Virus record (IMG/VR): IMGVR_UViG_3300033146_005170
Location: 1-64,000 of that record
Reading direction: 5' to 3' (one strand)
DNA from: a virus
Length of the DNA stretch: 64,000 bases
The translations under genes were made by a program, and so were the position numbers. The notes beneath the pieces were generated by a model. That model was not told where the DNA came from. It saw only the letters and a program-made list of their open reading frames with translations, and searched no databases. Each line of letters opens with the position of its first letter. The first letter of the stretch is position 1. Positions 36,281-44,978 of this stretch are shown here, one piece after another.

Positions 36281-36379
36281 ATTTAGAATAGTATACTTGA
36301 GTTTAAATTGGGGGTTTTGAATATCATACTTAAGGGGATTTAGAATAGTATACTTGAGTTTAAACTGGGGGTTTTGAAT
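36281..36379. repeat. 42-nt direct repeat x2
   Basis: ATTTAGAATAGTATACTTGAGTTTAAAYTGGGGGTTTTGAAT at 36281-36322 and 36338-36379. Confidence 0.92.
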
Positions 36380-36994: not shown

Positions 36995-37002
36995 ACACAC
37001 GA

Positions 37003-37287
37003 TTATTTCGACCAGTTAAAATCCGCCCCGGAATTCCAAAGCTCGAAATAAATACTGTCCAAATCGATGTTAAATCGTTTTGCCAATACCGGTAGGAAAT
37101 CGTACCAGAAATACACGCCGCTTTCCGGCTTCAGTTCATCGAATATTGTTATCCCGACACAATAGAATCCGCTTTTGTGTTCCTCGATATTCAAGTCCAT
37201 CAGTATAGATGAAATTTTTCCCTTGCCCATTTTGAATTGGACGTCTGTTGTTTCGTATTCCATTTCGAATGGCACTGTCATTGTCAT
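37003..37287 (-). CDS. Hypothetical early protein
   Basis: AAGGAG RBS and promoter upstream. Confidence 0.6.
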   Translation of the reverse strand: MTMTVPFEMEYETTDVQFKMGKGKISSILMDLNIEEHKSGFYCVGITIFDELKPESGVYFWYDFLPVLAKRFNIDLDSIYFELWNSGADFNWSK

Positions 37288-37313
37288 TTCTAACTCCTTT
37301 TTTGATATATCAT

Positions 37314-37342
37314 ATTATAACACGAGTTTTATTAAAGGTTAC
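37314..37342 (-). promoter_or_regulatory. Promoter GTAAC-N18-TATAAT
   Basis: aggtaac ctttaataaaactcgtgt tataat. Confidence 0.7.
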
Positions 37343-37358
37343 CTATGGGATTTTACCG

Positions 37359-37451
37359 ATGCCCCTGGGATTGCCCTTGCCCAATACAAAAGGGGTTGCC
37401 ATAGGTATTTACTAAATGCCTATGGGATTGCCATTGCCCAGTACAAAAGGG
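37359..37451. repeat. ~36-nt imperfect direct repeat x2 containing TTGCC
   Basis: ATGCCnnTGGGATTGCCmTTGCCCArTACAAAAGGG at about 37359 and 37416. Confidence 0.8.
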
Positions 37452-37610
37452 ATATTGGAGGAGAAAAGCAGAATTTCCCTTATGTCTTAAACTTATTAGG
37501 GAAAATAAAGCTAGATGCGATAATATTACTAAATTATTTCATTAAGCTTTAAATTATATAAAAAGTATCCCAGAATTGCACTGGATTTGCTAAAAAATGT
37601 AGCAAATTTG

Positions 37611-37880
37611 CTACATTTTCTTTATTTCTTCTAAGAAATCTTCAGTAAATGCACTATTTGGTGCATCTGACTGCATCTTCTTTAAGAAAATAGCTGTTTT
37701 ATACTTAAAAATCTCCATTTTTACCTTAGAAATTTCCAGTTTTCCTTGAGCTATATAGTCTATTGTGGCTACTATTTCACCTAATAGAATATGTGCCTCT
37801 CTTAAGTTATCACTGCTTTCTAGCTCAATATCAGCTAAAATTTTAGCTAAGATCAGCAACTTATTGTAATAATTCATCAT
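37611..37880 (-). CDS. Hypothetical early protein
   Basis: AAGGAG RBS. Confidence 0.6.
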   Translation of the reverse strand: MMNYYNKLLILAKILADIELESSDNLREAHILLGEIVATIDYIAQGKLEISKVKMEIFKYKTAIFLKKMQSDAPNSAFTEDFLEEIKKM

Positions 37881-37912
37881 CTATCTCCTTTAGATAGTAA
37901 TGGCCTAAGCCA

Positions 37913-38383
37913 TTACTTATATTGAGGGTAAAAACCCTCTAGCCAGAGTCTATATTTTAGGTCATCTTCATCAATTGAAGCTACTTTACTGAGCTTTGGA
38001 ATATAGTCAAACCAAAAGTCAAACCAAAAGTCTTCATAGTTATCGAAACCTAAGTCATGCTTTATAGGATTTTTAGCTTTTTCTAAAGTAACCCCCATAA
38101 ATTTATGGCTTTTATTGCCCCAAGTAGCCTCTAGATTAAACAAAGGGCCTTTAAGATTCAAGTACATAACCTGGTCATAGTATTCTCCGGCGGTGTAAGT
38201 CCAACTGTGAAGCCACTCTTCTTCATAAGTCCAGCTTCTGGGTTGTGGGGTATAGTTAAGAGATTGCAAAACACCATCTCTTACTAGTAATGAGCCTTCA
38301 AAAGTGAGAAAAGATCCCGGAGGAAGCTCCGTCATGATCTCTTCGTACATGTAGCTTTCGCTTTTTGGGATGTAAAGTTCCAT
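37913..38383 (-). CDS. Hypothetical early protein
   Basis: AAGGAG RBS. Confidence 0.6.
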   Translation of the reverse strand: MELYIPKSESYMYEEIMTELPPGSFLTFEGSLLVRDGVLQSLNYTPQPRSWTYEEEWLHSWTYTAGEYYDQVMYLNLKGPLFNLEATWGNKSHKFMGVTLEKAKNPIKHDLGFDNYEDFWFDFWFDYIPKLSKVASIDEDDLKYRLWLEGFYPQYK

Positions 38384-38418
38384 TTACGTCTCCTTAAGTT
38401 TGATTTGGTGTTGCCACC

Positions 38419-38907
38419 TCAATGACCTCGAAGAGAGGCCATCAAGCTAGTAATTTTACCTGACAAACAGCCATTTGCATAGTCTCTTATTTTGGGGTAT
38501 CTAACCCCATAAGATCTGATTGCTTTTCTAAGAAAATCCTGGCTATTTTCCCTAGCCACCATTATTCTTATTAAGCCCTTGTAATCTCCTTTGGCTTTCA
38601 TATCCAGTAATTCTCTAAAAGCCATAACACTGTTCTCTTCCGGCTCTAGAGTACTAAGAATATAAATTATAGCATGATCTGCTATGGCTGGTTCTTTTAT
38701 TACCCTTTCTAATAGGTCTGCTCTATATTCTTTGATTTCTGCTTTTGTCGGGTTTAGCTTAACCGCATACCCTCTAAAAGAATCTTTGAAACTCTTTAAA
38801 TCTAGAGTAAAACCAGCAGGCACAATTGCCTGCTTTAGAATGTGTAATCTTGACAACTCATTTTTACATGTTGCCACTTCCCCATCGGGGAACAGTATCT
38901 TTACCAT
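38419..38907 (-). CDS. Hypothetical early protein
   Basis: AAGGAG RBS. Confidence 0.6.
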   Translation of the reverse strand: MVKILFPDGEVATCKNELSRLHILKQAIVPAGFTLDLKSFKDSFRGYAVKLNPTKAEIKEYRADLLERVIKEPAIADHAIIYILSTLEPEENSVMAFRELLDMKAKGDYKGLIRIMVARENSQDFLRKAIRSYGVRYPKIRDYANGCLSGKITSLMASLRGH

Positions 38908-39158
38908 TCTAGCTCCTTTTTTACACTAGTCAATTCTCTAGCTAGACAATTTTCTAGAGCTTCTTGTTGTGCCATATGCTTGCTTCTCAGGTCGGAGTTA
39001 ACGTATTTAAAATACGTACCATACTCCAGTTCTCCCCTAAAATCATACTTATGTACACTATACTCTCTGCCTTCCTTATCCCGGCAGACGTAATTAGGGG
39101 TTATACAGATTACTCTGTAACCCCTAGTTTCGAATTCTTTAATCATATCTTTAATCAT
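38901..39158 (-). CDS. Hypothetical early protein
   Basis: Preceded by the conserved leader motif. Confidence 0.6.
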   Translation of the reverse strand: MIKDMIKEFETRGYRVICITPNYVCRDKEGREYSVHKYDFRGELEYGTYFKYVNSDLRSKHMAQQEALENCLARELTSVKKELEW

Positions 39159-39205
39159 AACTACTTCTCCTTTATTCTCTCAGGCAACATCCAGTTAATT
39201 AGCTT

Positions 39206-39559
39206 TTAAAGCCAAGCAAAGTAGGTGTATCTCCTAATAAGGAATTCTTCAAACAGCGCAAAGTCTTCAGCTGACCAGGAGGCCTTTGTGCTTTTTCGCC
39301 ATTGCTCATAACCTTTTCTAGTTACATAGCTACCGCCATAATCCCTTAAGATGGCAAAACCTACAACAGCCAGATTATCTAGCAGAAAATAGCCAGTTTC
39401 TTCTAGCCTAGTATCAAAGTCATCTTCTCTAATAGCCGGTTGACTTTGCTCCTTTTCAATTTCTGCTTGTGGTAAGTAGAAGATAGCCGCTTCCATGGCT
39501 ATCTTATACAACAATATGCTCTTTCGGCTCTTTATACTTGACTTAAAACAAAACTGCAT
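39206..39559 (-). CDS. Hypothetical early protein
   Basis: TAATG coupling to the upstream gene. Confidence 0.6.
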   Translation of the reverse strand: MQFCFKSSIKSRKSILLYKIAMEAAIFYLPQAEIEKEQSQPAIREDDFDTRLEETGYFLLDNLAVVGFAILRDYGGSYVTRKGYEQWRKSTKASWSAEDFALFEEFLIRRYTYFAWL

Positions 39560-40029
39560 TACTTTTCCTCCTCTTCATATTCCTTCCTCACCTCGAGCCA
39601 TGCCAGTTCTTCGAGCTTGAGCCATTTAGACCCAAGCTCGTCTTTACCGCAAACGGCCTTGTCATCCCAGATGCCGTTTGTTGAAGCTGCAGCAGCGTAC
39701 TTTAGATCCCATCTAGAGTTATATTCAGCCGCTGTAGTTAGGCTAAACTTGTTATGGATTTTATGGCGCATCATAAAAAATATTAACATAAGACCCCAGG
39801 TTTTGTACGAAATATTCGTAAACTCTTTTGCCGTAATGGTAGGGAAGTACAAATCCCTTTGCAGCCTTATAGGCTTGGTCTTCAGCTCGATCAAGCCCAT
39901 TCTCAACAGCTGTTCTGCTGCCTCCTGTAAGTTCTCAGGAATTTTAGGAGCCAGCAGCTCCTTACACCTTTTGTCCAAAAGGCGAGCTGCTTGTTGCAGC
40001 TGCTCTTTTAATCTAGTATCAACTTCCAT
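39559..40029 (-). CDS. Hypothetical early protein
   Basis: Preceded by the 107-nt repeat leader. Confidence 0.6.
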   Translation of the reverse strand: MEVDTRLKEQLQQAARLLDKRCKELLAPKIPENLQEAAEQLLRMGLIELKTKPIRLQRDLYFPTITAKEFTNISYKTWGLMLIFFMMRHKIHNKFSLTTAAEYNSRWDLKYAAAASTNGIWDDKAVCGKDELGSKWLKLEELAWLEVRKEYEEEEK

Positions 40030-40042
40030 AGTTGAATCCTCG

Positions 40043-40149
40043 CTTTATTCTTTCAGGCAACATCCAGTTATTGAGTGTTCATTAACACTATAGAGCACAC
40101 TACAATAGTGTACTCTAACTGTTAATGATCAGGTAATATTTACCTGATC
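40043..40149. repeat. 107-nt structured intergenic repeat, copy 1
   Basis: Matches 40404-40510 with one mismatch. Confidence 0.95.
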
Positions 40150-40394
40150 CTCTTTCCGTATAGGCTATGAAGCTCCGAGATGACTTCGTTAATCATCTCT
40201 TGTTTATGCTTGTAATATCCGGTATTATCCGAATACTTAAACTGACCCTTGCTGTCATAAGTGACAGTCTTGGTCACTTCATAAGTTTCTGGCGAGAATG
40301 ATATACGTATGATATACGTGTCTCCGCTATTTACCTTCATTGCTCTCGTAATATCAAAAGATGTTTTGATGTTCAAGTTATGGGGGATTACCAT
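40140..40394 (-). CDS. Hypothetical early protein bracketed by the two 107-nt repeats
   Basis: RBS in copy 2, stop codon in copy 1. Confidence 0.65.
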   Translation of the reverse strand: MVIPHNLNIKTSFDITRAMKVNSGDTYIIRISFSPETYEVTKTVTYDSKGQFKYSDNTGYYKHKQEMINEVISELHSLYGKRIR

Positions 40395-40403
40395 TTCTTA
40401 CTC

Positions 40404-40510
40404 CTTTATTCTTTCAGGCAACATCCAGTTATTGAGTGTTCATTAACACTATAGAGCACACTGCAATAGTGTACTCTAACTGTTAATGATCAGGTAATAT
40501 TTACCTGATC
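40404..40510. repeat. 107-nt structured intergenic repeat, copy 2
   Basis: Matches 40043-40149 with one mismatch. Confidence 0.95.
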
Positions 40511-40629
40511 TTTCTCAGTACGTAATAAACCGTACTTTGTGAAACTGCCATATACTTGGCAATAATCGCTGCTTTTATTCCTCGGTGGTACATACGGCAT
40601 ATTAAGCCGTTCCTTTTTTGCTTTGACAT
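40501..40629 (-). CDS. 42-aa helix-turn-helix microprotein (not in ORF track)
   Basis: MSKQKRNGLICRMYHRGIKAAIIAKYMAVSQSTVYYVLRKIR; AAGGAG RBS within the conserved leader. Confidence 0.7.
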   Translation of the reverse strand: MSKQKRNGLICRMYHRGIKAAIIAKYMAVSQSTVYYVLRKIR

Positions 40630-40675
40630 TAAACTGTCTCCTTTATTCTTTCAGGTAACATCCCGTAAAGGTTAA

Positions 40676-40765
40676 TTAGCGAAGGTAATTAACTACAAAG
40701 AATAAAACTATGGCATAAAGCCATGTTGTTATAGCAGCTATAGTAACTATGTCTATTATCTTCAT
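40676..40765 (-). CDS. 29-aa single-TM peptide (not in ORF track)
   Basis: MKIIDIVTIAAITTWLYAIVLFFVVNYLR; GAGG RBS. Confidence 0.5.
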   Translation of the reverse strand: MKIIDIVTIAAITTWLYAIVLFFVVNYLR

Positions 40766-41031
40766 AATAGGCCTCTCTTTACTAAGACGCTAGTAACTCG
40801 TACTAGCGTCTTAGTGCTTACATTAAAGCTTTTTAGGTAATTAAACCATTCAGCCATGACTTTCTCCTTAGTTCTTTCAGGTAATATCCTATTAATACTT
40901 AGGCGGGTGCCATACTTAATTATGTGTACACTGTATACACACTTATTAGTCCCCTGCTTCGCCCGGAAAATTTTTCAAATTCTCTAGAAGGGGCTACCAC
41001 TAAATAAGCTTAACATTAGTATATAGGCATT

Positions 41032-42978
41032 ATGAATTTTTTACCAATAAATATGCAAAGATCTAATATAAAAACAGCTGTTAAACCTCCATATTCTGGA
41101 TGGGTTTCTGAATATGCGAGATTTATGGAACATTATCCGGATGTTGTAGATTGGATTGATAGTTTACCAGATGAAATTTTTCCCTTAAACGGTAAAGTTG
41201 CAAGTATCAAATATGACTATATAAGTTTACTAGTAGCTGAGAGAACCATGCCAGATGTACATCATAAGGATAGAAAAAGGTTTAAGATTAGGTATGAGAC
41301 TACTAGTCAAGGGTCATGTATGATTCTTATTGATGGATGGTGTACTTGGTGGATTGAAACTTTATTTCAAGATGACTGGTGTCAGTTCAGTACTAAAGCA
41401 CACGCTGCAGCTGTAGGAGATTTAGATGTTTGGCTAGGAGATAGCCCTAATTTTAAATCTTTACGTCATGATAAAGTTAGTGTTCAAGCTAAAGCTCCAG
41501 AAGGAAATATGTACAACACTGCTCTAGACTATGTAGTTGGAAATAGTCTTTGTCAAATAGAAGCATATAAAATAGTGCCAGATATTTGGACCATTCCTCT
41601 TGAACCAGCTATTAGTTATACTCTTAAACCTAATACAGTTCCTTGGTATAAATTTCCTCCAAGAAATAGTCTATATACCACTGCAGGTAATGCTACAGAT
41701 ATTTTTGAACAAGCTAGCTTTGATTTTAAATGTTTATTTGGTACTAAAGCTTTTTTACCATCTATTGGTAAATTTATAGAATTTTATTGGTATTTTCTGA
41801 ATGAGTGGCGTGGACCTTACTACTCTAGATTTAAGGGTATTTTTGAAGATTGTGTTTTTAATGCTTCTCAGGTAAATTGTACCAAAGCAATAAAATGTAA
41901 CTTCTGGGATATTAACAAAGCTGCTGATCCATATTATAAGATAAATTTTCAGACTGCCGAGGAGTCTACTTTTGCCACTAATTGGGCTAGTATTTTTGGT
42001 ACTGGTCAGTTTATAAATAGTTGTATACGTCAAGATCAAATAGATGTTAGCTATACAGATACAAAAGTAGAAGCTTGTTGGTTAGAGGATATCGATGGCT
42101 ATGTAAGTGGAGAATTAATTAGAGTAAAGGCTATTAAACTTAAAGTTGCAGGTGAACTAATACTAAAAGGAGCTAATATTGAAGATGGGGAATTAACAGG
42201 TTCTAAATTTGATATTAGAGGCTTATACCTTAGAAATAGTTCAATACATACCTCTGGAGATATGCTACTTGATGATAGTCGCTTAATAGATAGCGTTGTC
42301 AATGCCAGTACAGGTGCCTATGCCATTAAAGGTTTAGGTATGGACAATAGTACTTTAAGTTTACAGACTGGAGCTATTTTAGAAAACAGTTCAGTAGTTG
42401 GAGGTAGTACCTTGCTACTTGGGCAAAATGTTGTTTTCAAAAGTAGTGCAGTGGCTAATGGAGGTACCTTAACCATTGGGGAAGGAACTCAGCTAGAAGG
42501 TTGTTTTTTATCAGTGGCTCAAAACACAACTGTAGTTGATAATATTACCCTTATAGGGGTTGATCTAGGTTTAAAAACTCATTGGGGTTATGCAGATGAT
42601 ATGGGAGGAGAGATAACTCATATGGGATTAAGTAGACAAACTCAAGCTACTTATGGCATACCCGTTACAAGTATAAATCTTAATCAATGCATAATAAAAC
42701 ACTCAGATTATTGGGCTTTGACTTCTGGAGCTAGATCTGAATTTGAGCTTTTTAAAGACTATGTTTTAGCCTATGACAAGTTGCTTTATCCAAGTAGTGG
42801 AGGAACTAGTAATGAGGCCGAAAAACTTTGGGTAGCAAAAGACCAAATAAGTGATAGCACACTGCAAGAATTAAAAACTTTAGAAGTGAATATACTAGGT
42901 TGTGAAAAACATAAGTGGTGGTATCCAATAAGCTATCCTTATGATCTAAATACAATAGTTGATCCAAGGAGACCATAG
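41032..42978 (+). CDS. Hypothetical protein with a C-terminal beta-helix-like region, first gene of the late block
   Basis: Periodic small/hydrophobic residues at about aa 350-510. Confidence 0.55.
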   Translation: MNFLPINMQRSNIKTAVKPPYSGWVSEYARFMEHYPDVVDWIDSLPDEIFPLNGKVASIKYDYISLLVAERTMPDVHHKDRKRFKIRYETTSQGSCMILIDGWCTWWIETLFQDDWCQFSTKAHAAAVGDLDVWLGDSPNFKSLRHDKVSVQAKAPEGNMYNTALDYVVGNSLCQIEAYKIVPDIWTIPLEPAISYTLKPNTVPWYKFPPRNSLYTTAGNATDIFEQASFDFKCLFGTKAFLPSIGKFIEFYWYFLNEWRGPYYSRFKGIFEDCVFNASQVNCTKAIKCNFWDINKAADPYYKINFQTAEESTFATNWASIFGTGQFINSCIRQDQIDVSYTDTKVEACWLEDIDGYVSGELIRVKAIKLKVAGELILKGANIEDGELTGSKFDIRGLYLRNSSIHTSGDMLLDDSRLIDSVVNASTGAYAIKGLGMDNSTLSLQTGAILENSSVVGGSTLLLGQNVVFKSSAVANGGTLTIGEGTQLEGCFLSVAQNTTVVDNITLIGVDLGLKTHWGYADDMGGEITHMGLSRQTQATYGIPVTSINLNQCIIKHSDYWALTSGARSEFELFKDYVLAYDKLLYPSSGGTSNEAEKLWVAKDQISDSTLQELKTLEVNILGCEKHKWWYPISYPYDLNTIVDPRRP

Positions 42979-43368
42979 ATGCTTATAGATGACAATATTT
43001 ATAGAGCCTTGCTAAGAATAAAAAATAAACCAGAAACTGCAGATTTATTAGTTGATCCAGAGTGTAAAGAAGACTTATTAAGCCTGCTATTAGTAGACTC
43101 TGATTCTGATGAATTTAGTTTGCAACAGGAATTTGAGTCCTCTTATAAACTAGTTAAAGACTATATTAACAATATGGATAAAATTACCAGTAAAGAGGAT
43201 TTAGATGTTTTAAAAGAAGCTCAAAAGTTTTTGACTTTTTTATTACGGAATGAAGAAAAACTTGCTAGTGTTGAAGAGGTAAAGAGATTTAAGGAGACTG
43301 TTCTTGAGGCCTTAGACGCTGCCAGTCCTGAGTTGAGAGACCAAGTTATTGCTGGATTAGCTCAATGA
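42979..43368 (+). CDS. terS: Probable terminase small subunit
   Basis: Helical 129-aa protein with ATGA overlap to TerL. Confidence 0.55.
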   Translation: MLIDDNIYRALLRIKNKPETADLLVDPECKEDLLSLLLVDSDSDEFSLQQEFESSYKLVKDYINNMDKITSKEDLDVLKEAQKFLTFLLRNEEKLASVEEVKRFKETVLEALDAASPELRDQVIAGLAQ

Positions 43369-44978
43369 ATCCGTATATTACTAACTTTAGGTCTGAACTT
43401 ATGGGTCGATATGGTTTGTTAAGTCATGGGCAAAGTAATTCTGAATGGATTGAACAAAATACAAAGTTATCAGGTAGAAATTTTAGCTTTGAAGGGCATG
43501 AGTTTCAGAGACAGATCTTAGATGATGAATGCCAACATCTGGTAGTGAAAAAGTGTTCTCAGGTAGGTTTGACTGAAGTTATTATACGTTGGGTATTGGC
43601 TTTTTTAGCTAGAAATCAGGGTCTAACTACTATCATGACTCAGCCAACTAGAATGATGGCTTTAAATTTTTCCACTACTAGAGTTGATGAGATAATAAAA
43701 GAGTCGCCACTGTTGAATAATCTTTTAGATCGTAAAGTAGATAGTAAAGAGCTTAAAAAGCTAAGTAAATCATATTTGTATATAAAAGGAACTATAGGTA
43801 GCTCATCGGCTATTTCAGTGCCTGCTGATGCTATTATTACTGATGAATATGACTTTAGCGATATGGCCGTAGTAGGTAAATATAATTCTAGACTTTCACA
43901 TTCAAAATATAAGATAATAAAAAGGTTCTCTACGCCTACTATACCTGACTTTGGAGTAACTAAAGAATTTGAGCTCTCGACTAAAAATCAAAGGCTACAA
44001 AAGTGTCCAAGTTGCAATCATTGGAACAATCATGACTTTTTTAAGGATGTCAAGATATTTCATCCTAAGTTTTATGGTGTGCCAATTGACAATATTCAAT
44101 TAGACGACCTATTAGAGATAGGTCCTGATCAAATAAAAATGCAGTGTCAAAAATGCGGTAGAGCCTTAGACTACACAGACTACACTGCTCAAGAGTGGGT
44201 TGAAGAACATCCAGGAAGATATATTCATGGTTATCAAGTTAGACCTTGGCATACTGAAACTCAGAAACCTTTTGATCTTCTTCGGTCTAGAGAAGACTAT
44301 GAACTTTACTCTGACTGGGTTAATTTTGGTTTAGGTGAGGATTATATTGATGCTAGTCAGATTTTTGATTTGAAAAAGATTACCGCTAGTAGCTTTCCTG
44401 TTTCTGACCATTTTGGGATGTTCTTAGGGATTGATTTTGGTAAGAAATGCTATTTAGCAATGGGCTTTCCTATTGACAATTCTATTATTATTTCTCTTTA
44501 TGAAGAGCTTAGTGAAGATAATGTTAAAGCTAGGGTTAAAGAGTTAATTAGAAGCTATTATATTGCTGGTATGGTTTTAGATGCCTTACCTCAAACTAAG
44601 TTGTCTTCTGATATTAGGAGTTTGCTACCTGGTAAGGCCTACACTGCTTACTACTCAGATAGTCAAAAAGATTATTTTGCCTTAAGAGCCAATAATAAAG
44701 ATGTTTCTATAGCTAGAACTCAGCTCTATGATAAGGTTTTAGGTCTAGATGAGATTATTATAAATGACACTGCACAACTTGAAACCTTTAAAAAGCATAT
44801 GCAAGGAATGATAAAACAAAGACTTAAAGACAATGAAGTTGAAGCTGTTAGATATGTAAAGGTAAAACCAGATCATTATTTACACGCTGTAGGATACTTA
44901 AAAACAGCTATAGATATCTTTGGAGCGAGTCAATCTCATATTGTAAAGCCTACTGTAACCACGACTAAAATGCAGTAG
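43365..44978 (+). CDS. terL: Terminase large subunit (lambda GpA-like ATPase)
   Basis: HEFQ, KCSQVGLTE, IITDEYD, STPT, two CxxC, GIDFG, PDHYLHA. Confidence 0.92.
   Translation: MNPYITNFRSELMGRYGLLSHGQSNSEWIEQNTKLSGRNFSFEGHEFQRQILDDECQHLVVKKCSQVGLTEVIIRWVLAFLARNQGLTTIMTQPTRMMALNFSTTRVDEIIKESPLLNNLLDRKVDSKELKKLSKSYLYIKGTIGSSSAISVPADAIITDEYDFSDMAVVGKYNSRLSHSKYKIIKRFSTPTIPDFGVTKEFELSTKNQRLQKCPSCNHWNNHDFFKDVKIFHPKFYGVPIDNIQLDDLLEIGPDQIKMQCQKCGRALDYTDYTAQEWVEEHPGRYIHGYQVRPWHTETQKPFDLLRSREDYELYSDWVNFGLGEDYIDASQIFDLKKITASSFPVSDHFGMFLGIDFGKKCYLAMGFPIDNSIIISLYEELSEDNVKARVKELIRSYYIAGMVLDALPQTKLSSDIRSLLPGKAYTAYYSDSQKDYFALRANNKDVSIARTQLYDKVLGLDEIIINDTAQLETFKKHMQGMIKQRLKDNEVEAVRYVKVKPDHYLHAVGYLKTAIDIFGASQSHIVKPTVTTTKMQ

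Follow-up and report, generated by a model that had tools for sequence, protein, structure and literature searches.

To our knowledge, promoter-early stem-loops (PeSLs) are the only documented regulatory repeats that act as gene-shuffling vehicles in lytic phages. RNase III processing sites are found in the early region of T7 and T3 and in the early mRNA of the Bacillus phage SP82, and stoperators, as in mycobacteriophage L5 and Cluster A, are DNA sites for the immunity repressor that are distributed genome-wide with no tie to the start codon. PeSLs were described in T4-type phages (Arbiol et al., 2010, PMC2839356; Comeau et al., 2014, PMC4122927) and have been proposed to mediate the gain, loss and exchange of cassettes via homologous recombination (PMC2839356; PMC4122927). 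The start-associated sequences (SAS) and ESAS of Cluster K mycobacteriophages were reported in 2011 in a study that contrasted them with stoperators (PMC3203893), and their function is still unproven (PMC12699233). Here we describe a set of repeated leaders, two of them preceded by a long RNA hairpin, in the early region of an uncultivated, lytic-type siphophage (IMG/VR virus record IMGVR_UViG_3300033146_005170). The record is 74,014 bp long with a 65-bp overlap between its ends, and the window, by which we mean the whole stretch of DNA analysed, comprises its bases 1-64000.

A common leader is fused to the ribosome-binding site of five early genes

The 23-mer GGATRTTRCCTGARAGAAYWAAG has five exact matches, each of them on the minus strand, and they fall in the 1.7 kb of the leftward early arm nearest the promoter (Table 1). 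The number expected by chance is zero, no match arose in 100 shuffles, and the whole genome holds no further copy. Each match lies 5´ of an open reading frame (ORF), with ORF starts at 39158, 40029, 40394, 40629 and 40857, exactly where the original prediction had placed a shared minus-strand motif. The leader, 18-23 bases in length, is fused to the Shine-Dalgarno (SD) sequence of these five small early genes, and the leaderless genes of the region are translationally coupled to leader-bearing ones (31-aa with 29-aa, 156-aa with 117-aa and 85-aa with 162-aa). The core of the leader, TTRCCTGA, is present 9 times in the 1.7-kb stretch and 19 times in the whole genome. Copy 1 carries ATA instead of ATG, together with a compensating change in the 5´ flank (AAU-AGGAU-AUU vs AAC-UGGAU-GUU).

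Relatives of this phage are scarce and uncultivated, and the 18-mer GGATGTTRCCTGAAAGAA of these leaders is also present in two complete genomes among them. G001 (74,883 bp; large terminase (TerL) 50% identical) has one perfect copy and one with 2 mismatches, while G002 (75,676 bp; TerL 74% identical, the nearest relative compared) has one copy with 1 mismatch and one with 2 mismatches, both of which surfaced only in a degenerate-pattern scan. All nine copies in the three phages are intergenic and on the early strand, with a spacing of 32-36 nt between box start and start codon in eight of them. The genes 3´ of the copies are mostly non-homologous between phages, the 156-aa protein alone of the early proteins being common to the clade; in G001, the homologue of the 156-aa gene comes immediately after an 86-aa gene that stands behind one copy. 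Since 16-18 of 18 bases are kept between distant phages in front of mostly different genes, we conclude that the sequence itself is under selection. Searches of viral contigs, metagenome contigs and prokaryote genomes returned the 18-mer in G001 only, plus chance or coding matches, among them one marine-phage group that has the string within a gene and a chance match in L271, all of which were set aside.

Four other members of the clade (L023, L196, L197 and L198; TerL 48-64% identical) are without the 18-mer and have the same layout, with 4-6 early genes each preceded by a phage-specific repeat of ~50-90 nt that contains small tetraloop hairpins and ends in CTGAGGAG and the start codon. The portability of the units, as originally predicted, is thus borne out both by the 18-mer before mostly unrelated genes in three phages and by the repeated leaders that these other phages have of their own. 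Homology between the 18-mer and the leaders of L023, L197 and L198 was considered and dropped, the alignment being ambiguous, and our claim is limited to shared architecture. In L196, L197, L198 and L023, the SD sequence GAGG of many early genes is displayed in the apical loop of a 5-7-bp hairpin (for example L198 5032, 4313 and 1773; L197 8221 and 6940). Because the arms of these SD-displaying stems vary from copy to copy yet remain complementary, leaders in the clade are constrained as RNA; the leaders of the present genome have no SD-displaying hairpin.

Two leaders are part of a 107-nt composite repeat

Leader copies 3 and 4 are contained in modules A and B, the two copies of a 107-nt repeat that are 99% identical, with one mismatch. 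The repeat begins within the final codons of the upstream gene, such that the two upstream proteins end in RKIR-stop and KRIR-stop, and it ends inside the downstream SD (AAAG-CGAGG vs AAAG-GAG, the hyphen marking the boundary). Within it lies a perfect palindrome, TCAGGTAA-ATA-TTACCTGA (10 bp + 3 + 10 bp), which therefore has two occurrences. The repeat with its one mismatch, the IR-stop gene ends and the palindrome had been pointed out in the original prediction and were recovered here. The minus-strand RNA of the repeat folds with -40.7 kcal/mol (z = -5.3) into a stop-containing 10-bp hairpin followed by an interrupted hairpin of 19-20 bp, and no U-tract follows either hairpin in this genome. 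Two earlier statements about this fold needed adjustment. The single mismatch had been taken for a base pair of the hairpin that is G-U on the minus-strand RNA only; the hairpin is real and its stem does contain a U-G pair, an internal wobble, but the sole difference between the copies is elsewhere, in the apical loop of the long hairpin (AUUGC vs AUUGU). The recurrence of TTRCCTGA had been thought to allow alternative pairing; the recurrence stands, and pairing of the 5´ arm of the palindrome with the leader core is feasible, though ~5 kcal/mol worse than the local fold.

The unique flanks of the two 107-nt copies and their one mismatch argue against an assembly artefact. The repeat period is 361 bp, and the 84-aa gene is enclosed between both copies. 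With its near-identical ends, chimeric IR-stop C-termini and a breakpoint in the SD, this 361-bp unit (module plus 84-aa gene) looks, as far as the sequence tells, like a recent cassette gain or duplication, which is the pattern expected from the recombination between modules that had been proposed. The boundaries of the repeat fall inside coding sequence and inside the SD, as recombination would leave them, and copies resemble each other more within a genome than between genomes, a sign of concerted evolution that ongoing exchange would produce.

The long hairpin is a conserved structured RNA

A covariance model of the long hairpin was built from the copies in the window, L197 and L198. The model recovered two unseen copies, in L196 (63.8 bits) and in G002 (locus L022; 28.8 bits), and gave no match in ~65 loci of more distant terminase relatives. 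Across nine copies in five phages, 16 pairs are formed with 98.6% of cells paired, and 9 pairs are changed on both sides, a level of covariation that none of 500 shuffles matched; covariation analysis had been suggested with the original prediction. The apical stems are wholly different among this genome (G000), L198/L196, L197 and G002. Fourteen cells are G-U, which corresponds to A-C on the opposite strand, and in all nine copies the early strand folds better than its complement, by 4.6-9.2 kcal/mol. Given these G-U cells and the better early-strand fold in every copy, the hairpin works as early-strand RNA and not as a DNA palindrome.

The hairpin counts seven plus 12 pairs; it has a one-base bulge, which is conserved, and a loop on the 3´ side. 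Conservation at the level of sequence is found in the lower stem (UAGAG/CUCUA), in the one-base bulge and in the 3´ tail (GUGUUA), which hints at a specific partner for the RNA. No covariance model of Rfam 15 matched positions 37000-41300 at E <= 1, and we regard the long hairpin as a newly recognised structured RNA.

Early genes and genome context

Table 1. Leaders, composite repeats, selected genes and the closing hairpin of the early region (window coordinates).
Feature	Position	Strand	Description
Leader copy 1 (GGATATTACCTGAAAGAACTAAG, then GAG)	40867..40889	-	5´ of 31-aa ORF 40762-40857; first leader past the divergent control region
Leader copy 2	40641..40663	-	5´ of 42-aa helix-turn-helix gene 40501-40629
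Leader copy 3	40404..40426	-	inside module A; 5´ of 84-aa gene 40140-40394
Leader copy 4	40043..40065	-	inside module B; 5´ of conserved 156-aa gene 39559-40029
Leader copy 5	39170..39192	-	5´ of 85-aa gene 38901-39158, itself translationally coupled to 162-aa gene 38419-38907
Module A (107-nt repeat)	40404..40510	-	10-bp perfect hairpin 40488-40510 with last codons and stop of the helix-turn-helix gene; long interrupted hairpin 40439-40488; leader copy 3
Module B (107-nt repeat)	40043..40149	-	hairpin 40127-40149 with last codons and stop of the 84-aa gene; long hairpin 40078-40127; leader copy 4
42-aa stand-alone helix-turn-helix protein	40501..40629	-	weak HTH_7, HTH_10 and phrog_1303 matches, below curated cut-offs
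84-aa ORFan	40140..40394	-	between the two 107-nt repeats; candidate most recently gained cassette
156-aa early protein	39559..40029	-	all-helical model, predicted local distance difference test (pLDDT) 79; sole early gene common to the whole clade
11-bp hairpin, T-runs on both sides	37594..37619	.	likely terminator closing the early operon, just ahead of the promoter at 37344

The early genes behind the leaders are small. The 156-aa protein belongs to a small family that is limited to the present clade and amounts to 31 representative clusters among 1.8 billion proteins; neither Pfam nor PHROG has a match to it, a Foldseek comparison with solved structures (PDB) gave none either, and it has no family name. 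The first two ORFs of the arm differ in character. The 31-aa ORF after the first leader contains a perfect 15-bp stem with a 5-nt loop (40781-40815) and overlaps, by ATGA, a 29-aa hydrophobic ORF (40676-40765) that holds a terminator-like hairpin (40710-40724); instead of being coding, these two "genes" may form a structured leader.

The plus strand, from 41032, encodes the large terminase (43365-44978), portal, major head protein and tape measure protein (4097 aa). The last of these spans L025 400-12693 (genome 54899-67192), with a recognisable tape-measure domain beginning only at ~residue 1830. The minus strand, from 40857 down to 10245, carries small genes without a known role and then ligase, primase, helicase, DNA polymerase and SbcCD, and the two arms diverge at 40890-41031. 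Just 5´ of the first leader, this divergent region contains a conserved element that is also seen at L019 4600-4760, L022 7470-7640, L196 960-1090, L198 5080-5270 and L197 9080-9240. Its parts are, in order, a palindromic box that resembles GGAAATTTCC and is present in 2-4 iterations in some relatives, the GC-rich segment GCGGGG, a hairpin that is short and covaries, and the conserved string CATGG(T/C)ACCCGC; the element could be an early promoter/operator, a structured 5´ untranslated region, or a packaging or replication site.

Further along the minus strand there are six middle-type promoters (GTGTAAC, 18 nt, TATAAT), of which the first, at 37344, lies beyond the likely terminator of the early operon. 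At all six positions (20568, 28564, 31960, 35430, 36986 and 37344), a GTGTAAC-like box stands exactly 18 nt before a perfect TATAAT, and spacer bases are held in common; the promoters are probably read with a candidate phage sigma factor. Tandem repeats of 57 nt, in two pairs, adjoin the first few of these promoters (37337-37450 and 36281-36379; 75% and 98% identical). A T7-like promoter reading was dropped, as no phage RNA polymerase was found in the genome and the giant ORF is the tape measure protein. In G002 (L022 3030-3210), three tandem copies of ACTTGTGATATAATAT, a TRTG-type extended -10, are located directly after its conserved hairpin, which hints weakly at Firmicute-style promoter use by the hosts. 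The best cultured terminase relatives are only ~31% identical, and a distant blastn search of a phage collection with the 2.2-kb region gave no match.

Possible functions of the leaders and the hairpin

We favour, with about even confidence, a model of RNA-level leader cassettes in which a start-associated translation module is combined with a processing, attenuator or stabiliser hairpin and the units are shuffled by recombination. Positions 40900-39150 would be the promoter-proximal part of a single leftward early operon, assembled from small cassettes with one standard RNA leader. With its constant spacing from a strong SD, the 18-nt box, (A)CUGGAUGUURCCUGAAAGAA, would be a start-associated translation-initiation module in the mRNA that provides unrelated ORFan genes with the same ribosome entry site, and most likely also with a common handle by which a trans-acting factor, from host or phage, sets early translation or shuts it down. 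Two cassettes would have an additional upstream structured part, comprising the 10-bp hairpin engulfing the upstream stop codon and then the 19-20-bp interrupted hairpin; the latter is most likely an intercistronic processing, 3´-stabiliser or attenuator site, akin to the R-sites of T7, that insulates adjacent cassettes. Because they are repeated in direct orientation, the modules would be able to recombine, and we infer that the two near-identical 107-nt copies on either side of the 84-aa gene were left by a cassette gain or duplication that took place recently. The pair could also remove this gene again. In favour of a single operon, a consensus scan for sigma-70-type promoters gave no promoter-like minus-strand site inside the modules (39170-40889), and one likely closing terminator follows (37594-37619).

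Several observations weigh against this model. The 18-mer itself is without covariation, such that its action at the RNA level rests on position, spacing and analogy. The long hairpin, at 17-20 bp with bulges, is at the lower limit for RNase III. In G002, the hairpin is followed by a U-rich run and located at the end of the early genes, which would suit a terminator or attenuator equally. Finally, the core TTRCCTGA forms a perfect DNA palindrome adjoining the helix-turn-helix (HTH) gene, as would suit a DNA operator.

The operator reading, in which TTRCCTGA is a half-site bound by a dimer at the palindromes and weakly at the leader boxes, so as to shut the early operon by roadblock or repression in the manner of L5 stoperators, is the least improbable of the alternatives, though still unlikely in our view. 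The 42-aa HTH protein encoded directly upstream may be the binder of TCAGGTAA-ATA-TTACCTGA, judging from sequence, and the same 8-mer that makes up the palindromes is the core of all leaders, which are asymmetric and co-oriented with transcription as stoperators are. However, neither an HTH homologue nor the palindrome was found in the fetched parts of relatives, yet G001 and G002 retain the 18-mer; as no homologue turned up in those parts of the relatives bearing the 18-mer, the HTH protein cannot be what reads the leaders in general. For a DNA roadblock, a constant spacing of 32-36 nt from the start codon would be meaningless, the conserved sequence reaches well past the 8-mer, and the adjoining hairpin is constrained as RNA. 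The operator units of the original prediction go back to the palindrome, which is specific to this genome, and its promoter units were not supported. Internal early promoters, in the form of PeSL-like terminator-plus-promoter units with GATGTT/GATATT as a weak -10, a start in GAAAGAA and short SD-bearing leaders, would agree with a layout of stem-loop, conserved box, SD, start codon and flanking ORFans, which is that of PeSLs (PMC2839356). The A and T at two key -10 positions are invariant in GAT(G/A)TT, and the GTGTTAA 17 nt upstream in the 107-nt modules resembles the middle-type GTGTAAC box. Nevertheless, the scan found no such promoter in any module, the upstream flanks of the five copies have no -35-like element in common, and the leaders do not have the perfect TATAAT exactly 18 nt from the box that marks the middle-type promoters of this phage. 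In relatives, moreover, the -10-like hexamers beside the SD vary and do so together with the other half of the SD hairpin. We consider internal promoters quite unlikely; sigma-54, sigma-28 and sigma-H readings of the box were discarded after a by-eye check, since their spacing does not fit.

Between these two readings in our ranking, and also unlikely, is a mini-cistron coupler, in which the ATG within the 18-mer opens an ORF of 8-13 codons (MLPER...) encompassing the SD of the gene and ending close to or at the start of that gene, so that ribosomes melt the structure and hand over. The same principle of mini-ORF coupling is used in synthetic two-cistron and bicistronic-design expression cassettes, as outlined in PMC5995908. 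Such a coupler would suit a portable leader that needs to work before any gene; the ATG is present in 8 of 9 copies, 5 of the 8 ATG-bearing copies have the stop about -6 to +1 from the main ATG, and the commonest variable positions, 8 and 14, are third-codon positions with mostly synonymous changes (TTG/TTA, GAA/GAG). This synonymous pattern, however, is not significant with nine near-identical copies. The mini-ORF has no ribosome-binding site of its own, only a GG directly abutting its ATG in place of a spaced SD, the first copy has ATA, three copies extend 8-30 nt beyond the main start, and coding would explain neither the bases 5´ of the ATG, which do not vary, nor the likewise invariant third positions T11 and A17. 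Very unlikely, in our estimate, is a two-site target of the CsrA/RsmA type, with one GGA in the loop of a mini-hairpin (AC-UGGAU-GU) and a second in the SD ~22 nt downstream, bridged by a dimer that blocks ribosomes on all early genes. The repeats of CsrB are CAGGAUG, to which the leader loop is close; GGAUGU is invariant or nearly so, spacing to the GGA of the SD is constant, and the copy at 40889 has one compensatory flank change (AAC..GUU to AAU..AUU). Against it, the mini-stem is just 2-3 bp, the base before GGA is U and not a purine, the conserved UUGCCUGAAAGAA is left unexplained, one G001 copy has AGA instead of GGA, and the second GGA is absent from the leaders of other clade members. 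Neither the mini-ORF nor the CsrA-like reading accounts for the whole conserved box. Least credible of all is the absence of a dedicated function, with the leader as the footprint of repeated duplication of a good ribosome-binding region and the 107-nt pair as a neutral tandem duplication. Near-identity of the copies within the genome and duplication boundaries in coding sequence and SD would be expected on this view, but not the maintenance of the 18-mer at 16-18 of 18 positions despite TerL identities of 50-74% and mostly unrelated early genes, nor a hairpin with compensatory evolution.

A bolder form of the RNA-level cassette model, which we put forward only tentatively and hold to be doubtful, is that the early operon of the clade runs on standardised RNA cassettes, with a universal leader through which one dedicated factor, from host or phage, turns the whole set of early proteins on or off at once, a conserved insulating hairpin, and repeats that serve as recombination sites for trading ORFans. 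If true, this would be a natural counterpart of synthetic parts combining an insulator with a standard ribosome-binding site, and the hairpin would represent a new RNA family with a specific protein partner. The covarying hairpin offers a concrete RNA element, and the 18-mer a short bait for the factor that reads the leader. If the leader works before arbitrary genes, it would also be a ready-made expression part.

Comparison with known leader and cassette repeats

The long hairpin resembles T7-type RNase III sites in being intercistronic in an early polycistronic transcript, in forming an irregular hairpin of ~20 bp with an internal loop, in having several similar copies per early region, and in that it would remain on the upstream RNA as a 3´ stabiliser. 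It has the architecture of such sites (~two helical turns with an internal loop) and is a candidate RNase III site. It differs in that it precedes 2 of 5 leaders only, stems are down to 15-17 bp in relatives, and the lower stem UAGAG/CUCUA is conserved in sequence, suggesting a sequence-specific binder. With the stoperators of mycobacteriophage L5 and Cluster A, the leaders share asymmetric short sites in short intergenic spaces, co-oriented with transcription, but the sites here do not occur outside the early operon, and their spacing from the start codon is fixed.

Closest in kind to the leader are SAS/ESAS, which likewise are short asymmetric boxes that include or abut the SD core a few bases before start codons, and which have one orientation, are confined to the non-structural half of the genome and are conserved across relatives before different gene families. 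About half of SAS sites have an upstream inverted repeat (ESAS), as compared to 2 of 5 leaders here. The sequences differ (GGGATAGGAGCCC for SAS vs GGATGTTRCCTGAAAGAA followed by AAGGAG), and the box here does not match the SAS consensus GGGATAGGAGCCC with up to two deviations. There are 10-20 SAS sites over half a genome as opposed to 5 leaders within 1.7 kb, and the phage described here is low-GC and uncultivated, with no recognisable lysogeny genes found. Unlike in ESAS, the upstream hairpin has covariation and strand asymmetry, and acts as RNA.

PeSLs are similar in being composite intergenic modules of ~100 bp that include a stem-loop, have the SD and start codon at their 3´ end and recur where small ORFans abound, and the single ORFan between two modules is a textbook PeSL configuration. 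The definition of PeSLs, however, requires a consensus sigma-70 early promoter together with a terminator stem-loop. In the present units no promoter was detected, and the 2 of 5 that have stable hairpins are without a U-tract, while the homologous hairpin of G002 is followed by a U-rich run. The box here is welded to the SD, pointing to translation rather than transcription. The feature is best filed as a variant of the known phage leader and cassette repeats that is a member of neither the SAS/ESAS nor the PeSL family. A second, unrelated phage lineage unites both traits, in that its box is welded to the ribosome-binding site and its structured repeat flanks single ORFans, which suggests that standard early-gene leaders are a general solution for expressing and exchanging host-takeover genes.

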